Virus record (IMG/VR): IMGVR_UViG_2695420427_000010
Reading direction: 5' to 3' (one strand)
Length of the DNA stretch: 7,214 nucleotides
Source: a virus
Taxonomy: Duplodnaviria; Heunggongvirae; Uroviricota; Caudoviricetes
Shown here: one piece after another, positions 1 to 7,214 of the stretch
Layout of the letters: every line of letters begins with the position of its first letter
Position numbering within the stretch: position 1 is the stretch's first letter
Position numbers and translations under genes: made by a program
The notes under the pieces: model-generated
Told to the model about the DNA's origin: nothing
The model's input: the letters and a program-made list of their open reading frames with translations, nothing else
Databases searched by the model: none

Positions 1-229
1 GCGGCGCTGGGCAACGACCCGAATTTTGCGACCACCATGACTAACGCGCTTGCGGGTAAGCAACCGAAAGATGCCACCCTGACGGCGCTGGCCGGACTTA
101 CTACTGCGGCAGGCAAGTTTCCGTATTTTACGGGGAATGATGTCGCCAGCCTGGCAACCCTGACAAAAGTCGGGCGGGATATTCTTGCGAAATCGACCGT
201 TGCCGCCGTTATCGAATACCTCGGTTTAC
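1..229. repeat. Inverted repeat copy 1 of the 3' end of the stf constant region, paired with 4236..4464
   Basis: Direct comparison: the reverse complement of 1..229 equals 4236..4464 except for one mismatch (204 C versus the equivalent of T at 4261, synonymous). Identity stops at 229/4236, inside the variable-side half of the crossover site. Confidence 0.9.
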
Positions 230-1122
230 AGGAAACGGTAAACAAGGCTGGTAACGCCGTTCAGCGTTCCGGCGATAAAATGACCGGAGAACTGAAAATT
301 GGCACGGTGAATGCGCTGCGAATTTTCAATGATACCTTCGGTCTAATTTTCCGTCGTTCAGAAGATTTTCTTCATTTCATTCCGACGGCTGAAGGACAAG
401 GCGAAAACGGTAATATCGGCCCATTAAGGCCATTCGCTATAAATCTGAGAACAGGTGCTATATCTGTCAGCCACGGGGCCAAAATTAAAGGAGGTCTAGC
501 TATTGGAGCTACTGATAACGCACTGGGTGAAAACTCCATTGTTCTGGGAGATAACGACACCGGATTTAGGCAAGATGGAGATGGTATTATTAGCTTCTAT
601 TCAAATGGTTCGCGCATCGGACATATTGATGAGTTAGGATTACATCTTTATAAAGATATTGAATCTAATGGCAGCAATTTTAGATTAAAAAGTAATTACC
701 GCCACCACATTACATTCGCCAACGAAGACGGAAGAATTCGTATGTTTTTGTGGAAAGATAACGGTGGTGATGGTGTTCATATTAATAACGGTTCAGATGG
801 TGGTGGTGATTTCATTTTTAAAACAGATGGGGGATTTGCGCTGGGAAGTGGTGCGCAAGTTGCGTCTAGTGGCGATATTTATGGTTCAGTGTGGGAAAAC
901 AACTGGTTAAGCACATGGCTGCATAATCATGTCGTTCGGGATATTCGTCTTGGCAGCATTGAATATAAAAACGTATGGCGCGACTACGGCTTTGGCGATG
1001 CGTCAGGTTATGTTTTAACAGCCGCAATTAACAGCAATGCGGATGATATTGTCGACACTGTTGCCAGAAGGCCAATTCAGAAATTGATTGGGGGAATATG
1101 GTACAACGTGGGGAGTGTTTAA
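1..1122 (+). CDS. stf: Side tail fibre protein, 3' portion: end of constant region (1..229) plus variable tip cassette C1 (230..1119). Partial, the reading frame is open from position 1 and the gene continues upstream of the window.
   Basis: Frame 1 is open from nt 1. The first 76 codons match the constant-region segment of the minus-strand stf ORF ([12 protein letters not shown]...AVIEYLGL). The downstream cassette carries tail-fibre-like motifs ([23 protein letters not shown]) and ends with TAA at 1120-1122, 1 nt before the tfa start. Confidence 0.85.
209..234. other. Site B, gix/pix/hix-like 26-bp inversion crossover site (12-bp half-site, 2-bp core, 12-bp half-site) at the stf constant/variable junction
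   Basis: TTATCGAATACC-TC-GGTTTACAGGAA. From memory, the Mu gix site is TTATCCAAAACC-TC-GGTTTACAGGAA; the right half matches exactly and the left half has 2 mismatches. The position at a tail-fibre constant/variable boundary is the classical one. Confidence 0.75.
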
Positions 1123-1123
1123 G

Positions 1124-1651
1124 ATGATGCACCTGAAAAATATTAAGGCCGGGAATCCGAAAACACCGGAACAATACCAGCTAACTAAAAAAGCGGGCGT
1201 GGTATGGCTCTTTTGCGAAGATGGCAAAAACTGGTATGAGGAACAAAAGAATTTTCAGCCAGACACCATAAAAATTGCTTACGATGAGAACAACATCATC
1301 GTTGCTGTCAGTAAAGACGTTTCAACTATTAATCCTGAAGGGCTAAGCATAGTTGAAGTTCCTGATATTACGGCAAATCGTCACGCAGACAATAACGGAA
1401 AATGGATGTTTCTGGATGGTAAAGTAGTAAAGAGGGAATATACAGAACAGGAACTGCAACAACAGGCCGAATCACAAAAGGCCGCATTGCTTTCCGAAGC
1501 TGAATCAGTCATCCAGCCGCTGGAACGCGCTGTCAGGCTGAATATGGCGACGGACGAGGAACGCACACGACTGGAAGCATGGGAACGCTACAGTGTTCTG
1601 GTCAGCCGTGTGGATACGGCAAATCCTGAATGGCCACAAAAGCCTGAATAA
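1124..1651 (+). CDS. tfa: Tail fibre assembly protein (Tfa chaperone) for cassette C1
   Basis: Product begins [21 protein letters not shown], the conserved Tfa N-terminus of lambda Tfa / Mu U type. GGGGAG ribosome-binding site 8 nt upstream. Starts 1 nt after the stf stop. Confidence 0.85.
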
Positions 1652-2215: not shown

Positions 2216-3142
2216 TTATACCTGCGATACGTTATACCATGTTCCGTTAATTAACTTTTGTATTGGTCTGAATACTGCCGGATCATCACCATCGACTTCA
2301 CCGATAATACCAAGCCCCGTGATTACATGGCCTGATTTTTCATACATCACGCCTTTCTTCATGGTCTAAACAACTCGTGTGCCAAGTCTGACATCTCTCA
2401 CATAGCGGGAATCAAAGTTACCGTAATCCGAGGGATTAACACGTCCCGTAATATTTATGGTTTTATTACTTTGAATGCTTCCGGAGACAAAGCGCATAAC
2501 ATGGACGTTATTAGCATAAACATCCAGATTACCATCGCCTTTTTGTTTAAAGCCCGTGTCATTATCACCCAATACAATCGAATTACCGCCAAGAGCACTG
2601 GATGTTCCGATACCCAGTGCACCATTCAGTTGACCACCAGATAACGGCAGTGCACCAACATCTCCTGCTGAAGGTTTTCTGGTGGTGTAAAATTCGGACC
2701 AGTCGGCTTCAAAACCATAACCATCACGGGCTGAACGATAAAAAATACCGCCATTTTTATAATTAATCCGAAACTGAGCTGCAGGACAACTTCCTTCTCC
2801 CATATAAAAATGAATAATTAACGTTGATGCACCACTAATAGTTGCGTTATAGGCTCCGCTACTCCAGTTCCATCCAACTGCTTTATCATTCGCAACGGTG
2901 CTTCCTGTTTTCCCTAAGGCAAACGCACCAACATGACTTGCTTTTAATGTGATATCGGAGGAACCATCAAAAGCCACATTGCTTATTTTCCTGGCAGTTT
3001 TTAATTTTGCAGCTGTAGAAGCATTGCCGGATAGTTCACCAGAAAGGCCACCGCTGAATGTTTGTCGATTAGTCCAGGTATTCGCTGTACTGAGTAACGG
3101 TATTTTCTCCCCGCTTGTGCCGAGTTCTCGTAAACCGAGGTT
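2216..3142 (-). pseudogene. Alternative tail-fibre tip cassette C2 with no start codon of its own (would be expressed only when fused at site C), interrupted by a single in-frame amber codon at 2366-2368
   Basis: The frame is open from the codon after the site-C stop (3142) down to TAG at 2366-2368, then continues in the same frame for 49 codons (T, then MKKGVMYEKSGHV...[17 protein letters not shown]) to TAA at 2216-2218. The post-amber tail aligns with the last residues of cassette C1 ([18 protein letters not shown]), and VRDVRLG before the amber aligns with VRDIRLG in C1. Confidence 0.7.
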
Positions 3143-3150
3143 TTAGATAA
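3125..3150. other. Site C, gix/pix-like 26-bp crossover site immediately upstream of the invertase gene (gixR-equivalent position)
   Basis: TTCTCGTAAACC-GA-GGTTTTAGATAA, a near match to the recalled gix sequence TTCCTGTAAACCGAGGTTTTGGATAA. The reading frame through the site is the same as through site B, so recombination gives an in-frame const-C2 fusion. Confidence 0.75.
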
Positions 3151-3204
3151 TGGCGGTTTCTGGCCTGCATGGCATGATTTGTGCTTTTGGACGGGAGATT
3201 CAGC

Positions 3205-3531
3205 GTGCTGATTGGCTATGTAAGGGTATCAACAAATGACCAGAATACAGACCTGCAACGAAACGCTCTTGTTTGTGCAGGATATGAACAAATATTTGAA
3301 GATAAATTAAGCGGAACAAGGACAGGCCGACCTGGATTAAAACGTGCTTTAAAGCGCCTTCAAAAAGGTGACGCACTGGTTGTCTGAAAACTGGACTGAC
3401 TGGGTCACTGTATGCGGCATCTTGTCGTGCTGGTGGTGGAAGCCTAGAAAAAGTATCGGGTGTTGCTGAACCGTGTTGATACATCAACTGCACCTGATAT
3501 TGAGTGGCCTACGAACCCTGTCAGGGAGTAA
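3205..3531 (+). pseudogene. pin: Serine DNA invertase of the Pin/Gin/Hin/Cin family, inactivated: 60 N-terminal codons intact, then multiple stops and frame decay, 3' end missing
   Basis: GTG at 3205 with a GGGAG ribosome-binding site gives MLIGYVRVSTNDQNTDLQRNALVCAGYEQIFEDKLSGTRTGRPGLKRALKRLQKGDALVV, the recalled Pin/Gin N-terminus. TGA at 3385-3387 sits where the family has Trp (VVWKLDRLGRS); further stops follow at 3397-3399, 3445-3447 and 3529-3531. An intact gene of about 185 codons would run to about 3770, which is occupied by the convergent methyltransferase coding sequence. Confidence 0.8.
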
Positions 3532-3545
3532 TCATTGGGATTATG

Positions 3546-3578
3546 CCGCAGCACGTCTTAAGCAAGAACGTGCTGCGG
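3546..3578 (+). terminator. Strong hairpin between the invertase remnant and the stop codon of the stf-methyltransferase fusion; possible plus-strand terminator
   Basis: Perfect 11-bp stem CCGCAGCACGT / ACGTGCTGCGG with an 11-nt loop. On the plus strand it is followed by TTGGATGCTATTTTTT, an interrupted T-tract. There is no T-tract on the minus strand. Confidence 0.35.
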
Positions 3579-3585
3579 TTGGATG

Positions 3586-6099
3586 CTATTTTTTCCCTGA
3601 AGCGGAAAACATTACTACAGTACCTTGAACCCTGGTTTTAACATTCTCGAAATGCTCTGAGAGTATATGTGTTAAGCCTTCTTCGGAATCTTTTGTGTTT
3701 GAAAAGATGCCTTTCTGATTGTAAATGCGCATCAGTTTTTGACCGAAGCTATTGTGCACAACTCCATCGCCAAGAATTGTGGCTCCGTATAGAGTTCCAT
3801 CGTCAGTTAAGGCCTGCGCCGCATTGCGTATTACACAGCTTTTTGTAGATATATTTCCAGGCAGGCAGTGAAGAAGGTAAAACATGGAAATGGAATCAAA
3901 TTGACCATGTAACGCCGCGGGATAAGGTTCAAAAACATCATGGCTAATTTTATGTTTAATTTTTGATTCCCCAGCCCTTGTAGATGCCGCGTTCAGGCTA
4001 GCTTCGTTCAAATCCATTAAAGATATCAGACTACTCTCAGGTACGTGAGTAAGGTAAAACCCAGTTCCAACACCAATATCCAGATGGTTGTTACCTAAAT
4101 GTTCCAGAAAGTGTGGAAGAAGGTGTTCCTTTGTAGGACATCCCCATGCAAGCCGATTTGATACTCCCAAAACCCACCAGTCATAAAGCTTTAGGGTAAG
4201 TGGTGTGTAAATTTTAGCCCCATCATCTGTGTTTAGTAAACCGAGGTATTCGATAACGGCAGCAACGGTCGATTTCGCAAGAATATCCCGCCCGACTTTT
4301 GTCAGGGTTGCCAGGCTGGCGACATCATTCCCCGTAAAATACGGAAACTTGCCTGCCGCAGTAGTAAGTCCGGCCAGCGCCGTCAGGGTGGCATCTTTCG
4401 GTTGCTTACCCGCAAGCGCGTTAGTCATGGTGGTCGCAAAATTCGGGTCGTTGCCCAGCGCCGCAGCCAGCTCGTTCAGCGTGTTCAGTGCATCAGGTGA
4501 CGAATCTACAAGGGCGGCAATCGCAGCCATAACGAAAGCCGTGCTTGCGATTTGGGTATTATTCGTTCCCTGTCGCGCAGTTGGTGTTGTTGGCGTTCCG
4601 GTCAGTGCAGGACTATTTAAGGGCGCTTTCTTGTTCGTTTCACCCATTACCGCCTTAACCGCTTTTGGCGTTGCCGCCAGTGACTCGGAAGTGCTGTTGG
4701 TCGCACTGCTGAGCTGTACTATCCCCTTTTTCGTCGTGCTCGCATCCTCCAGCGCCACGGCGGATGCAATATCCTCTGCCCGTTTTGCTGCTGTCTCGGC
4801 GCGCGTTGCCGCGGATTCAGCAGCAACTTTGCTCTGAGATGCAGCCGTCGCACTGCCTGCCGCCTCTGATGCTTTCGTTGTTGCTGTCGTGGCACTACCT
4901 TTCGCTGCTGACGCTTGTCTGGTCGCCTCATCTTTTGAAGCAGACGCAGATGATGCCGATGACGCCGCTGAACTGGCTGACGATGCGGCTGCTGCCTTAG
5001 AGGAAGCAGCATTGTCTGCTGAAGTCTTTGCATTTGTTTCAGAGGTTTTTGCTGCAGAAGCAGACCTCGCTGCTGCAGTGGCTTGCTCAGTGGCTTTGCC
5101 AGCCTTCGTTGTGGCTGTTGAAGCGGATGATGCGGCGCTTTCTGCCGATTTTCCGGCGGCGGTGGCACTGGCTGAGGCCTGCCCGGCACTTGTTGACGCG
5201 GCACTGGCAGATAATGCAGCCGCTGTTTTTGAACCTGCCGCAGCTGAGGCGCTCTGTCCCGCTGCTGTTTCAGAAGACTTAGCGTTCGTCTCGGACGTTT
5301 TTGCCGCCTTCGCGGAATTTCCTGCCGCCGTTGCCGAGGAAGCTGCACTACTGGCACTTGATGATGCATTCGTTTCTGAAGATTTCGCTGCCTCTTTTGA
5401 GGCCGCCGCACCCCGTGCCGAGGTGGCAGCTTCTGACGCCTTCGTGGTCGCTGTGGATGCAGAAGTGGCTGCCGATTTTTGTGATGCTGCGGCATTCGTT
5501 TCTGACGTTTTCGCGGCACTGGCGCTGGTAGCTGCCGCGCTTTTTGATGACTCTGCAGCAGCACTTTTTGCTGCTTCACGGGCCTTTGTCGATGCCGTTC
5601 CTGCGCTGGAAGACGCTGACTGAGCCGACGACGCGGCCTGTCCGGCTGACGTGCTGGCGGCACGTGCTGAGGCTGCAGCATCGGTTGCATGAGTTGCCGC
5701 CTCGCTGGCTGATTTTTTCGCGGCTGCCGTATTCTGTGCAACCGCGGAGGCGTTACGTGACACCTCTTCCACCATCTGCTCAAAGCGGCGCAGTGCCTCC
5801 GGTCGGACATCATCCTCCGTCATGGCACCGAGAAAATCATTCAGCGTACCTGGTCTGGAACCTTCATAGACGGTAATGGTCCCGGCATGTGAAGGCGGAA
5901 AACCTTCAACCAGCAGGGTGACGCTGTACTGACCATGCTCAACATCCATGCTGTAACGTCCGGCTTCATCCGGATTTTCAGAGGCCACCGTGTTCACCAC
6001 CATCGTGCTGCTGGTTCGTCTGGCCTTCAGCACAATGGTGCAGTTCTGTACTGGTTTTCCTGTGCCATCTTTAAGCACGCCAGAAATTTTTACTGTCAT
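3586..6099 (-). CDS. stf: Side tail fibre protein Stf (lambda-like N-terminal and central constant region, 4237..6099) fused in frame at crossover site A to a C-terminal SAM-dependent methyltransferase-like domain
   Basis: 837-codon ORF with a GGTGGA ribosome-binding site. The N-terminus MTVKISGVLKDGTGKPVQNCTI...GFPPSHAGTITVYE is recognisably the lambda Stf N-terminus. A long Ala/Ser/Thr-rich repetitive shaft follows. The constant region ends ...AVIEYLGL at the site, then LNTDDGAKIY... runs into the methyltransferase motifs. Confidence 0.85.
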   Translation of the reverse strand: MTVKISGVLKDGTGKPVQNCTIVLKARRTSSTMVVNTVASENPDEAGRYSMDVEHGQYSVTLLVEGFPPSHAGTITVYEGSRPGTLNDFLGAMTEDDVRPEALRRFEQMVEEVSRNASAVAQNTAAAKKSASEAATHATDAAASARAASTSAGQAASSAQSASSSAGTASTKAREAAKSAAAESSKSAAATSASAAKTSETNAAASQKSAATSASTATTKASEAATSARGAAASKEAAKSSETNASSSASSAASSATAAGNSAKAAKTSETNAKSSETAAGQSASAAAGSKTAAALSASAASTSAGQASASATAAGKSAESAASSASTATTKAGKATEQATAAARSASAAKTSETNAKTSADNAASSKAAAASSASSAASSASSASASKDEATRQASAAKGSATTATTKASEAAGSATAASQSKVAAESAATRAETAAKRAEDIASAVALEDASTTKKGIVQLSSATNSTSESLAATPKAVKAVMGETNKKAPLNSPALTGTPTTPTARQGTNNTQIASTAFVMAAIAALVDSSPDALNTLNELAAALGNDPNFATTMTNALAGKQPKDATLTALAGLTTAAGKFPYFTGNDVASLATLTKVGRDILAKSTVAAVIEYLGLLNTDDGAKIYTPLTLKLYDWWVLGVSNRLAWGCPTKEHLLPHFLEHLGNNHLDIGVGTGFYLTHVPESSLISLMDLNEASLNAASTRAGESKIKHKISHDVFEPYPAALHGQFDSISMFYLLHCLPGNISTKSCVIRNAAQALTDDGTLYGATILGDGVVHNSFGQKLMRIYNQKGIFSNTKDSEEGLTHILSEHFENVKTRVQGTVVMFSASGKK
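3589..4236 (-). other. Class I (Rossmann-fold) SAM-dependent methyltransferase-like domain forming the C-terminus of the stf ORF
   Basis: Motif I HLDIGVGTGFY (about 4050..4080); an acidic post-I residue in LMDLNEASL; DVFEPYP and FDSISMFYLLHCLP resemble motifs II/III. No DPPY/NPPY motif and no PCQ motif, so it does not look like a DNA methyltransferase. No Met between the junction and motif I. Confidence 0.6.
4231..4256. other. Site A, gix/pix-like crossover site at the junction of the stf constant region and the methyltransferase domain
   Basis: GTTTAGTAAACC-GA-GGTATTCGATAA. The constant-side half-site is identical to that of site B (TTATCGAATACC on the coding strand) and the core is the same. 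The variable-side half keeps the inner GTAAACC but differs in the outer 5 positions. Confidence 0.7.
4236..4464. repeat. Inverted repeat copy 2 (3' end of the stf constant region on the minus strand), paired with 1..229
   Basis: See copy 1: 228/229 identity to the reverse complement of 1..229. Confidence 0.9.
4735..5770 (-). repeat. Low-complexity, internally repetitive Ala/Ser/Thr-rich shaft-coding region of stf (approximate bounds)
   Basis: Translation shows reiterated KTSETNA / SASAA / TATTKASEAA units. The GC-rich codon repetition produces long open frames on both strands (track ORFs 4719..5813 minus, 4889..5623 plus and others). Confidence 0.5.
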
Positions 6100-6250: not shown

Positions 6251-6850
6251 TCAGATACGGTATCCGATACCAACAATAAATGCATCCGTTCGCCAGTCAC
6301 CACTACCGGAACCTTCATAAGCAAGGTCAATGGTCACGGATTCGGTCGGGTTAAACTGCACGCCAGCCCCCCACGCCAGAGACGTGTTGCTGTGGCGACC
6401 GTCATCACTTCCGGTCAGCACGTCGTGCGTTTTCCCCTTGTTGTCAGTTACGCGGAGATAATCCCCGGAGAAAGTCGACACACGGCTGTAAGCCACGCCT
6501 GCCATCGCATACGCGCTGAACCATTCATTCACGCGTACAGACGGCCCCGCCATCACGCTGAACCAGCGGTTACGCACGGAATCTTCATGCCAGCGGGTAT
6601 CGCTGTAGTGCGTTTTTTGCTCATCCTCAGCATTGGCATAACTGAAGGACGTAATCAGCCCCAGCGCGTCCGTAAACTCATAACGGTATTTCACGTTAAT
6701 CCCGTTCAGATTATCGCTGCCGGGAGCGTTCGTACGGGCATGAAGATACCCCGCGCTCAGTGTGGACTGATGTTCAGACGCCCATGCAGGCGCACCGGAT
6801 ACGGACAGACAGATGGCTGCGGACAAAATGGCTGCACAAACTTTACGCAT
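6251..6850 (-). CDS. lom: Lom outer-membrane protein (Ail/OmpX/PagC family beta-barrel)
   Basis: 199-codon ORF with a signal-peptide-like N-terminus (MRKVCAAILSAAICLSVSGAPAWA) and a C-terminal aromatic residue. The sequence is recognisably lambda Lom, and its position between J and stf matches lambda. GAGAGG ribosome-binding site. Confidence 0.9.
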   Translation of the reverse strand: MRKVCAAILSAAICLSVSGAPAWASEHQSTLSAGYLHARTNAPGSDNLNGINVKYRYEFTDALGLITSFSYANAEDEQKTHYSDTRWHEDSVRNRWFSVMAGPSVRVNEWFSAYAMAGVAYSRVSTFSGDYLRVTDNKGKTHDVLTGSDDGRHSNTSLAWGAGVQFNPTESVTIDLAYEGSGSGDWRTDAFIVGIGYRI

Positions 6851-6917: not shown

Positions 6918-7214
6918 TCAGCTGATACTGATGCCTGCGGTGGCTTTCTTCATCACCACAACCAGCAAATCGCTGATACTTGCTGTGGGATACCAGTCAT
7001 TTACCAGCCATGATGACACCGAAAACTCCAGCGTCATGTGGCCGCGACCAGCTGGCATATCAATAACACCACTGTAAATCAGCGTATTATCCAGCGCGGT
7101 ACGGTTATAAATTTCAGCACCGTTTTTCCGTACTATCAGGCGGCATGACGAATAAATATCGTTATTCTCCCGCTCATGTTTAGCGCCGCTGAATGCCACC
7201 GCCGGAATAACAAT
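6918..7214 (-). CDS. J: Tail tip host-specificity protein J, C-terminal end (partial, continues beyond the window end)
   Basis: The ORF is open to the window edge and ends 68 nt upstream of lom, separated by a terminator. Synteny J-lom-stf is that of lambda. Assignment rests mainly on position and recalled similarity of the C-terminus; not verified. Confidence 0.65.

Follow-up and report, generated by a model that had tools for sequence, protein, structure and literature searches.

Organization of the Locus

The DNA analysed here, hereafter the window, is the entire 7,214-bp contig CXDV01000178.1 of the draft assembly GCA_001260535.1, read in reverse complement. It covers the tail end of a lambdoid prophage, i.e., the 3' part of the side tail-fibre gene stf, the assembly gene tfa, the alternative pair tfa'/Sv', an invertase-like ORF and a convergent methyltransferase gene, followed on the minus strand by the stf N-terminus, lom and J. 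The locus adjoins ompW/trp in approximately 426 complete E. coli genomes, including those of ST131 EC958 and NCTC86, and the element is prophage Phi4 of E. coli ST131, which is also present in Shigella sonnei and in other E. coli.

Plus-strand positions 1-1122 hold the 3' part of stf, which aligns co-linearly with the 918-aa stf of sister contig L021 (99.9%). Positions 1-229 form the end of the constant region, and 235 to the stop codon at 1120-1122 encode Sv, the variable C-terminus that is currently expressed. Crossover site A (209-234, plus strand; TTATCGAATACC TC GGTTTACAGGAA) is identical to the site listed by Forde et al. (2014; PMC4134206, Table 3) as Phi4_5prime. Downstream of Sv is its partner tfa (1124-1651, plus strand; Caudo_TAP, 127 bits), followed on the minus strand by the alternative assembly gene tfa' (1680-2213, Caudo_TAP) and the silent alternative fibre C-terminus Sv' (2216-3124), which carries an in-frame stop at 2363-2365. 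Crossover site B (3125-3150), which reads TTATCTAAAACC TC GGTTTACGAGAA on the minus strand, is inverted with respect to site A and corresponds to Phi4_3prime (Forde et al., 2014). Additionally, a GC-rich palindrome, AAGGCCCGATAGCGGGCCTT, occupies 1655-1680, between the convergent tfa and tfa' genes and at the centre of the invertible segment, and is likely a bidirectional terminator.

Just beyond site B lies an invertase remnant, gin' (3205-3440, plus strand), which comprises 78 codons plus 2 nt from a GTG start and is gin-type over 3205-3395 and pinE-like over 3396-3440. It is followed on the same strand by 'tfa, a 3' fragment of approximately 28 codons of a tfaR/tfaQ-type gene (3434-3531). 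Downstream, a hairpin with a 15-bp stem followed by a T-run (3545-3579; -28.5 kcal/mol, z = -4.2) stands between the 'tfa stop and the stop of the convergent methyltransferase gene at 3586; it was absent from a simple terminator scan and is probably a terminator shared by the two. The PGAP annotation places a 45-aa "hypothetical protein", WP_001309429.1, at 3504-3641 (plus strand), overlapping both the hairpin and the 3' end of the methyltransferase gene, and this is probably a spurious ORF. The methyltransferase itself (3586-4234, minus strand) is a class I SAM-dependent enzyme that lacks its first approximately 7 codons, at the end of the first of the two contigs joined in the window.

A Scaffold Mis-join at Position 4235

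Position 4235, an A in the window, is an N in the public record CXDV01000178.1 and represents a one-base scaffold gap. Specifically, the window consists of positions 12387-16620 of L021, one base, and the reverse complement of L021 positions 9637-12615, the latter matching at 99.8%. The second contig (4236-7214, minus strand), which carries the stf N-terminus and constant region (4236-6099), lom (6251-6850) and the C-terminus of J (6918-7214), stands in the wrong place and orientation and really belongs upstream of position 1. It ends exactly at the GGTTTAC of site A, where the paths into Sv and Sv' diverge. Thus, the 837-aa ORF that fuses a tail fibre to the methyltransferase (3586-6099, minus strand) is a scaffolding artefact of two contigs joined in the wrong orientation, and so is the 229-nt inverted repeat formed by 1-229 and 4236-4464. 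The stf::methyltransferase junction is absent from 5,426 complete genomes, IMG/VR, GTDB representatives, JGI metagenomes and 5.8 billion proteins, and native methyltransferases, which begin with MVKSMKKNTDDG, have no crossover site in their vicinity.

Other origins of the 4235/4236 junction were considered and rejected. An invertase-mediated exchange with a third site or quasi-site finds no crossover site beside the canonical methyltransferase, and the one-N gap explains the junction; the gap likewise accounts for it in place of an inter-prophage inversion or duplication or a template-switch fold-back. One match reaching 9 nt past the junction (H31) is a chance extension, and three protein matches covering approximately 82% of the query (P0031, P0046 and P0056) are ordinary tail fibres and not relatives of the fusion. 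The stf constant region occurs twice in the window, and the copies differ at a single base: C at 204 (as in EC958) and T at 4261 (as in all sister contigs). Possibly, some reads came from another prophage whose stf constant region is nearly the same, as with Phi1 and Phi4 in ST131. More generally, draft contigs near invertible segments can hold mis-joins, of which the one at 4235, with its spurious fusion protein, is an example.

The Tail-Fibre Switch Is Still Inverting

The segment between sites A and B shows the architecture of a tail-fibre switch: the two inverted 26-bp crossover sites conform to the family consensus, the constant 5' part of stf lies outside, and the mirrored cassettes Sv-tfa (plus strand) and tfa'-Sv' (minus strand) lie inside. 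The first-pass annotation had considered this switch frozen owing to the loss of its resident enzyme, a view that is contradicted by the distribution of the two orientations. Among complete genomes, 302 carry the segment in the orientation of the window and 152 carry it flipped, all with the same dead stub; flipped copies were counted by full-length matches to a synthetic junction that places Sv beside the stub. In ST131, comparison of EC958 with JJ1886 reveals a clean 3.1-kb inversion at 99.8% identity, with co-linear flanks and identical stubs containing both TGA codons of gin', and the breakpoints fall inside the 26-bp sites (overlaps 3199-3225 and 6291-6317). Similarly, the segment lies as in the window in sister contigs L021 and L014 and is reversed in L022 and L018, with 99.7-100% identity. 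In line with these comparisons, a separate PacBio contig with the alternative orientation of the Phi4 segment was reported from an EC958 culture, together with approximately 50% alternative-orientation reads for the Phi1 segment (Forde et al., 2014). Population comparison and published PacBio contigs thus show that inversion of the 3.1-kb A-B segment continues.

The stop at 2363-2365 splits Sv' into ORFs of 203 and 48 aa, a split that is also called in the sister contigs. Correspondingly, annotation of the flipped sister contigs gives a fibre of 875 aa and a distinct 48-aa ORF, versus 918 aa in the other orientation; in the lineage of the window, the fibre made in one state of the switch may thus be truncated at its C-terminus.

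As to the enzyme, the first-pass annotation had allowed for an invertase acting in trans, and this part of it agrees with the occurrence of both orientations beside a dead stub. For the Phi4 segment, trans action by the invertase of Phi1 was proposed by Forde et al. (2014). Phi1, a P2-like prophage that encodes an intact 199-aa Gin-type invertase and whose crossover sites are nearly identical to those of Phi4, is the candidate source of the enzyme in ST131. Judging from the orientation polymorphism and the literature, an intact Gin-type invertase of a co-resident prophage most probably supplies the activity. Flipping by homologous, RecA-dependent recombination between inverted repeats would dispense with a trans-acting invertase, and the segment does contain candidate substrates, since imperfect inverted repeats of 32-36 bp occur at the two crossover sites and tfa and tfa' share a further one of 159 nt (71% identity). 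However, such repeats are poor substrates for RecA, being either very short or too diverged for exchange to be efficient, the breakpoints that separate EC958 from JJ1886 lie within the 26-bp sites, and the alternative-orientation contigs of Phi4 and the proportion of inverted Phi1 reads (Forde et al., 2014) are frequencies that fit site-specific inversion, all of which makes the RecA route very unlikely. The reading favoured here, which in all likelihood is correct, is that of a chimeric remnant gin'::'tfa whose enzyme is dead, beside a segment that keeps inverting, most probably through the invertase of a co-resident prophage and with a putative enhancer retained in the remnant.

Coding Capacity of the Invertase Remnant

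The GTG-initiated ORF at 3205 (frame 1; VLIGYVRVSTNDQ...) has 60 clean codons before a TGA. Codons 5-13 encode YVRVSTNDQ, which carries the Ser nucleophile motif YxRVSTxxQ, and the Pfam Resolvase profile (PF00239) matches the 60-codon ORF with 57 bits over profile positions 2-69, in agreement with the initial description of a pseudogene with an intact N-terminal catalytic segment. That description had also recognized a TGA where the family has Trp, and nucleotide alignment bears this out: codon 61 (3385-3387) is TGA, versus TGG in Mu Gin, P88, Phi1 and PinE, and this stop is confined to the ompW/trp-site lineage. A second in-frame TGA at codon 65 (3397-3399), where all intact relatives have Arg (CGN), is common to all copies examined. 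Of the further stops noted earlier, this one is genuine, whereas the TAG at 3445-3447 belongs to the tfa fragment. The apparent frameshifts vanish on alignment with Mu gin, the P88 and Phi1 invertases and e14 pinE, in which the invertase frame is kept with zero indels to 3440.

When the stops are read through, the Resolvase profile extends over positions 2-91 of 145 on residues 3-83. Of the catalytic domain, which has approximately 140 residues when complete, the remnant thus lacks the C-terminal half with its E-helix, and the C-terminal helix-turn-helix DNA-binding domain is wholly absent, the sequence 3' of 3440 being the tfa fragment, the hairpin and the methyltransferase gene. Sequence for invertase codons 79-185 is absent from the locus in every copy. 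With half of its catalytic domain and its entire DNA-binding domain missing, gin' cannot make an invertase.

A Remnant, Probably Mosaic, Fused to a tfa 3' End

Within gin', the 191 nt at 3205-3395 differ from Mu gin at 6 positions (96.9% identity), the changes being C27Y, D41G, T57A, W61stop and two synonymous substitutions, and are only 70% identical to pinE. Over the following 45 nt (3396-3440) there are 22 differences from Mu gin (51% identity) versus 8 from e14 pinE (82%), and 3410-3436 is identical to pinE. High-identity matches to the gin genes of Mu, D108, SfMu and P88-type phages all stop at 3395. In phage and plasmid collections no intact parent of 3396-3440 was found, the closest sequences being pinE-type at no more than 87-89%; pinR and pinQ of K-12 are unrelated at the DNA level and were discarded as relatives. 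Alignment thus suggests that gin' is a gin/pin mosaic with its junction at 3395/3396, with locally faster decay as an alternative for 3396-3409.

From approximately 3434 onwards, the match is to the 3' end of tail-fibre assembly genes of the tfaR/tfaQ type (...E A W K K Y R V L L N R V D T S T A P D I E W P... stop). The invertase sequence ...CTG GTG GTG GA/A GCC TAG AAA AAG..., in which the slash marks the join, compares with ...TTG CTG GAA GCA TGG AAA AAG... in tfaR, and the join is in frame, within a short microhomology at 3433-3440. The read-through translation matches positions 104-130 of 131 of the Pfam Caudo_TAP profile on residues 79-105, and PGAP annotates the same two partial genes, invertase and tail-fibre assembly, in reference genomes. 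Within the fragment, TAG 3445-3447 is a mutated Trp codon, TGG in tfaR and in the copies at att-lambda (see below), and TAA 3529-3531 is the natural tfa stop. Additionally, 3434-3580 is 89% identical to a second tfa fragment located beyond the methyltransferase in canonical genomes.

The first-pass annotation had treated 3205-3585 as a single invertase pseudogene, with a decayed 3' part, cut by the methyltransferase gene and leaving a frozen switch. Several features invite this interpretation, since the stops come after codon 60, the methyltransferase gene is only 54 nt downstream, and Gin (..RSLTDSIDTSSP..) and Tfa (..RVLLNRVDTSTAP..) happen to resemble each other at the protein level, by chance. 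Nevertheless, all invertase homology stops at 3440, well short of 3585, and 3434-3580 matches tfa 3' ends together with their downstream DNA, so that what had been taken for a decayed invertase end is, at 3434-3531, a tfa fragment fused in frame at invertase codon 78. The absence of indels, the occurrence of the same junction without the methyltransferase and the frequency of both segment orientations also speak against it, and the single-pseudogene interpretation is hardly tenable. By sequence comparison, the flagged region is best described as a fixed chimeric remnant, gin'::'tfa, at the right end of a lambdoid tail-fibre switch, not as one decaying gene. The contrast between a clean and a decayed part does exist within the remnant (6 differences in 191 nt versus 8 in 45), but it reflects the mosaic junction and the foreign tfa fragment, not graded decay. 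An apparently decaying tail can thus be a fusion to the 3' end of another gene, and graded decay is not inferable from stop codons alone.

In canonical genomes the methyltransferase gene is bracketed by two direct copies (89%) of the tfa 3' end plus approximately 50 nt of downstream DNA, the first corresponding to 3434-3580 of the window and the second located at 10384-10531 of contig L001. The position of the methyltransferase looks like a cargo slot that is exchanged by recombination at tfa 3' ends.

Distribution and Order of Events

The junction of stub and tfa occurs in approximately 763 of the 5,426 complete E. coli genomes, and the exact 60-aa product is found on at least 999 contigs bearing the names of S. 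sonnei and E. coli. The gin'::'tfa module resides at two attachment sites, ompW/trp and bioA/ybhB (att-lambda), with different cargo downstream. Specifically, strains 90-1 and 13C1065T carry it in an att-lambda (bioA/ybhB) prophage, upstream of a diguanylate cyclase and with no methyltransferase. These copies have Cys at codon 27 and TGG both at codon 61 and at the tfa Trp codon, together with TGA at codon 65 and the identical junction; their 64-aa ORF is annotated as WP_001378636.1. Alignment confirms that the window, NCTC86, EC958, JJ1886, 90-1, 13C1065T and L021 all share the identical junction, in which the tfa 3' end follows invertase codon 78, as well as the TGA at codon 65.

Since the att-lambda copies share the junction and the codon 65 TGA and keep codon 27, codon 61 and the tfa Trp codon, the comparison places the truncation/fusion and the codon 65 stop first, and C27Y, W61stop and the tfa Trp-to-stop change later, as lineage-specific events. 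As reconstructed from these alignments, an ancestral Gin-family invertase gene was cut at codon 78 by an illegitimate, microhomology-mediated deletion, which fused gin' in frame to the last approximately 28 codons of a tail-fibre assembly gene. The remnant then gained nonsense mutations: the TGA at codon 65, carried by all copies, and, in the lineage of the window only, the TGA at codon 61, accompanied by C27Y and the tfa Trp-to-TAG change. The methyltransferase had been held responsible for the truncation, by replacing the DNA-binding domain. However, the truncation predates and is independent of the methyltransferase, because the identical junction lies upstream of a diguanylate cyclase in the att-lambda prophages; the methyltransferase gene is thus variable cargo and not the cause of the truncation.

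Does the Remnant Act as a Peptide or as DNA?

The clean 5' sequence of gin' could be explained if an N-terminal peptide of 60-64 residues were expressed with a function of its own, such as modulating co-resident invertases. Such a peptide would begin at the native GTG start of the family, and the ORF is annotated as a protein in many genomes. Nonetheless, the 63 codons compared with Mu gin contain 3 missense, 1 nonsense and 2 synonymous changes, a pattern that looks neutral, and the stop lies at codon 61 or 65 depending on the lineage. The E-helix, which invertases need for dimer and tetramer contacts, is missing from the fragment, and a promoter scan found no promoter-like site. A peptide function is therefore most improbable; because 3 missense and 1 nonsense changes stand against 2 synonymous ones, the 5' part of gin' shows no visible purifying selection as a protein. 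The other way to rescue a product, namely that the stops are sequencing or assembly errors in a gene that is really intact, can be dismissed even though the window is a short-read draft contig with one demonstrable scaffolding error, since 330 nt of the stub region are identical in a sister assembly, the same TGA codons recur in hundreds of finished genomes (including EC958, JJ1886 and NCTC86), the 60-aa product is so widespread among contigs, and codons 79-185 are missing in every copy.

The remnant may instead matter as DNA. In Gin/Hin systems a Fis-bound enhancer is required in cis, and in Mu three Fis sites lie within the gin coding region, approximately 550 bp upstream of the mom start. 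Matches to the Fis consensus are found at nt 94, 129 and 140 of gin in Mu, P88 and Phi1. The window keeps the stretch homologous to Mu gin nt 94-154 (3298-3358), with Fis-consensus matches at 3298-3312 and 3344-3358; these two matches, versus 0.54 expected by chance, are a weak signal when taken alone, and the middle Fis-type match of Mu gin is degraded in the window (G to T at 3333). The two motifs are 46 bp apart and the spacing of Fis sites in the Hin enhancer is 48 bp, and no argument is drawn from spacing. By positional homology and two weak motif matches, 3298-3358 is thus a predicted Fis-dependent recombinational enhancer (sis).

Retention of 5' gin DNA with a putative enhancer would explain efficient inversion in trans. 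It is conceivable, if on balance rather doubtful, that the stub persists in hundreds of lineages and at two att sites because its first approximately 160 nt are a cis Fis enhancer that the switch still needs. If so, a lambdoid prophage would outsource its enzyme to a co-resident P2-like or Mu-like prophage and keep just the sites and the enhancer, which would constitute a cross-prophage dependency and a case of selection on a non-coding function within a pseudogene.

Relation to Known Inversion Systems

The window shares its architecture with the G-segment/Gin system of Mu, as well as with the C-segment/Cin of P1, the P-segment/Pin of e14 and Hin of Salmonella. Common to the Mu-type systems and the window are a constant 5' part of the fibre gene, inverted 26-bp sites with a central TC/GA, mirrored cassettes, and an invertase gene immediately beyond the right-hand site. 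The 191 nt at the start of the stub, which are so close to Mu gin, include the stretch corresponding to the mapped Fis sites of Mu. Unlike these systems, the window has a dead resident enzyme (78 of approximately 193 codons, with two stops) and its inversion would depend on a foreign one; in contrast to Mu, the switch resides in a lambdoid prophage whose tail module is J-lom-stf. The resemblance to pinE of e14 in E. coli K-12 is restricted to the 3' part of gin', whereas the 5' 191 nt are far more distant, which points to a gin/pin mosaic and not to a pinE allele.

The closest relative is Phi4 of EC958 (Forde et al., 2014, PLoS One 9:e104400), which represents the same locus: its Phi4_5prime and Phi4_3prime sites are letter for letter sites A and B, it also has a 3.1-kb invertible segment, its stub is 99.3% identical to that of the window and carries the same two TGA codons, and it has the same methyltransferase neighbour and ompW/trp integration site. 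It belongs to another lineage, with Sv/tfa cassettes to which those of the window are only approximately 74-94% identical; by the names attached to identical proteins, the window is probably from Shigella sonnei. The feature is thus real but ordinary, the truncated invertase and the idea of inversion in trans having already been published in 2014 (PMC4134206). Since PGAP already annotates both gene fragments, it carries little weight as a discovery; the gin'::'tfa fusion, the mosaic structure and the enhancer are not described in the 2014 paper. That prophage tail-fibre switches can remain active without an enzyme of their own bears on the prediction of phage host range and on the interpretation of assembly breaks. 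Additionally, lom is split by ISEc12, an IS21-family element, in the ST131 prophage (EC958, positions 741-3926 of contig L002, and JJ1886, contig L010) and is intact in the window.
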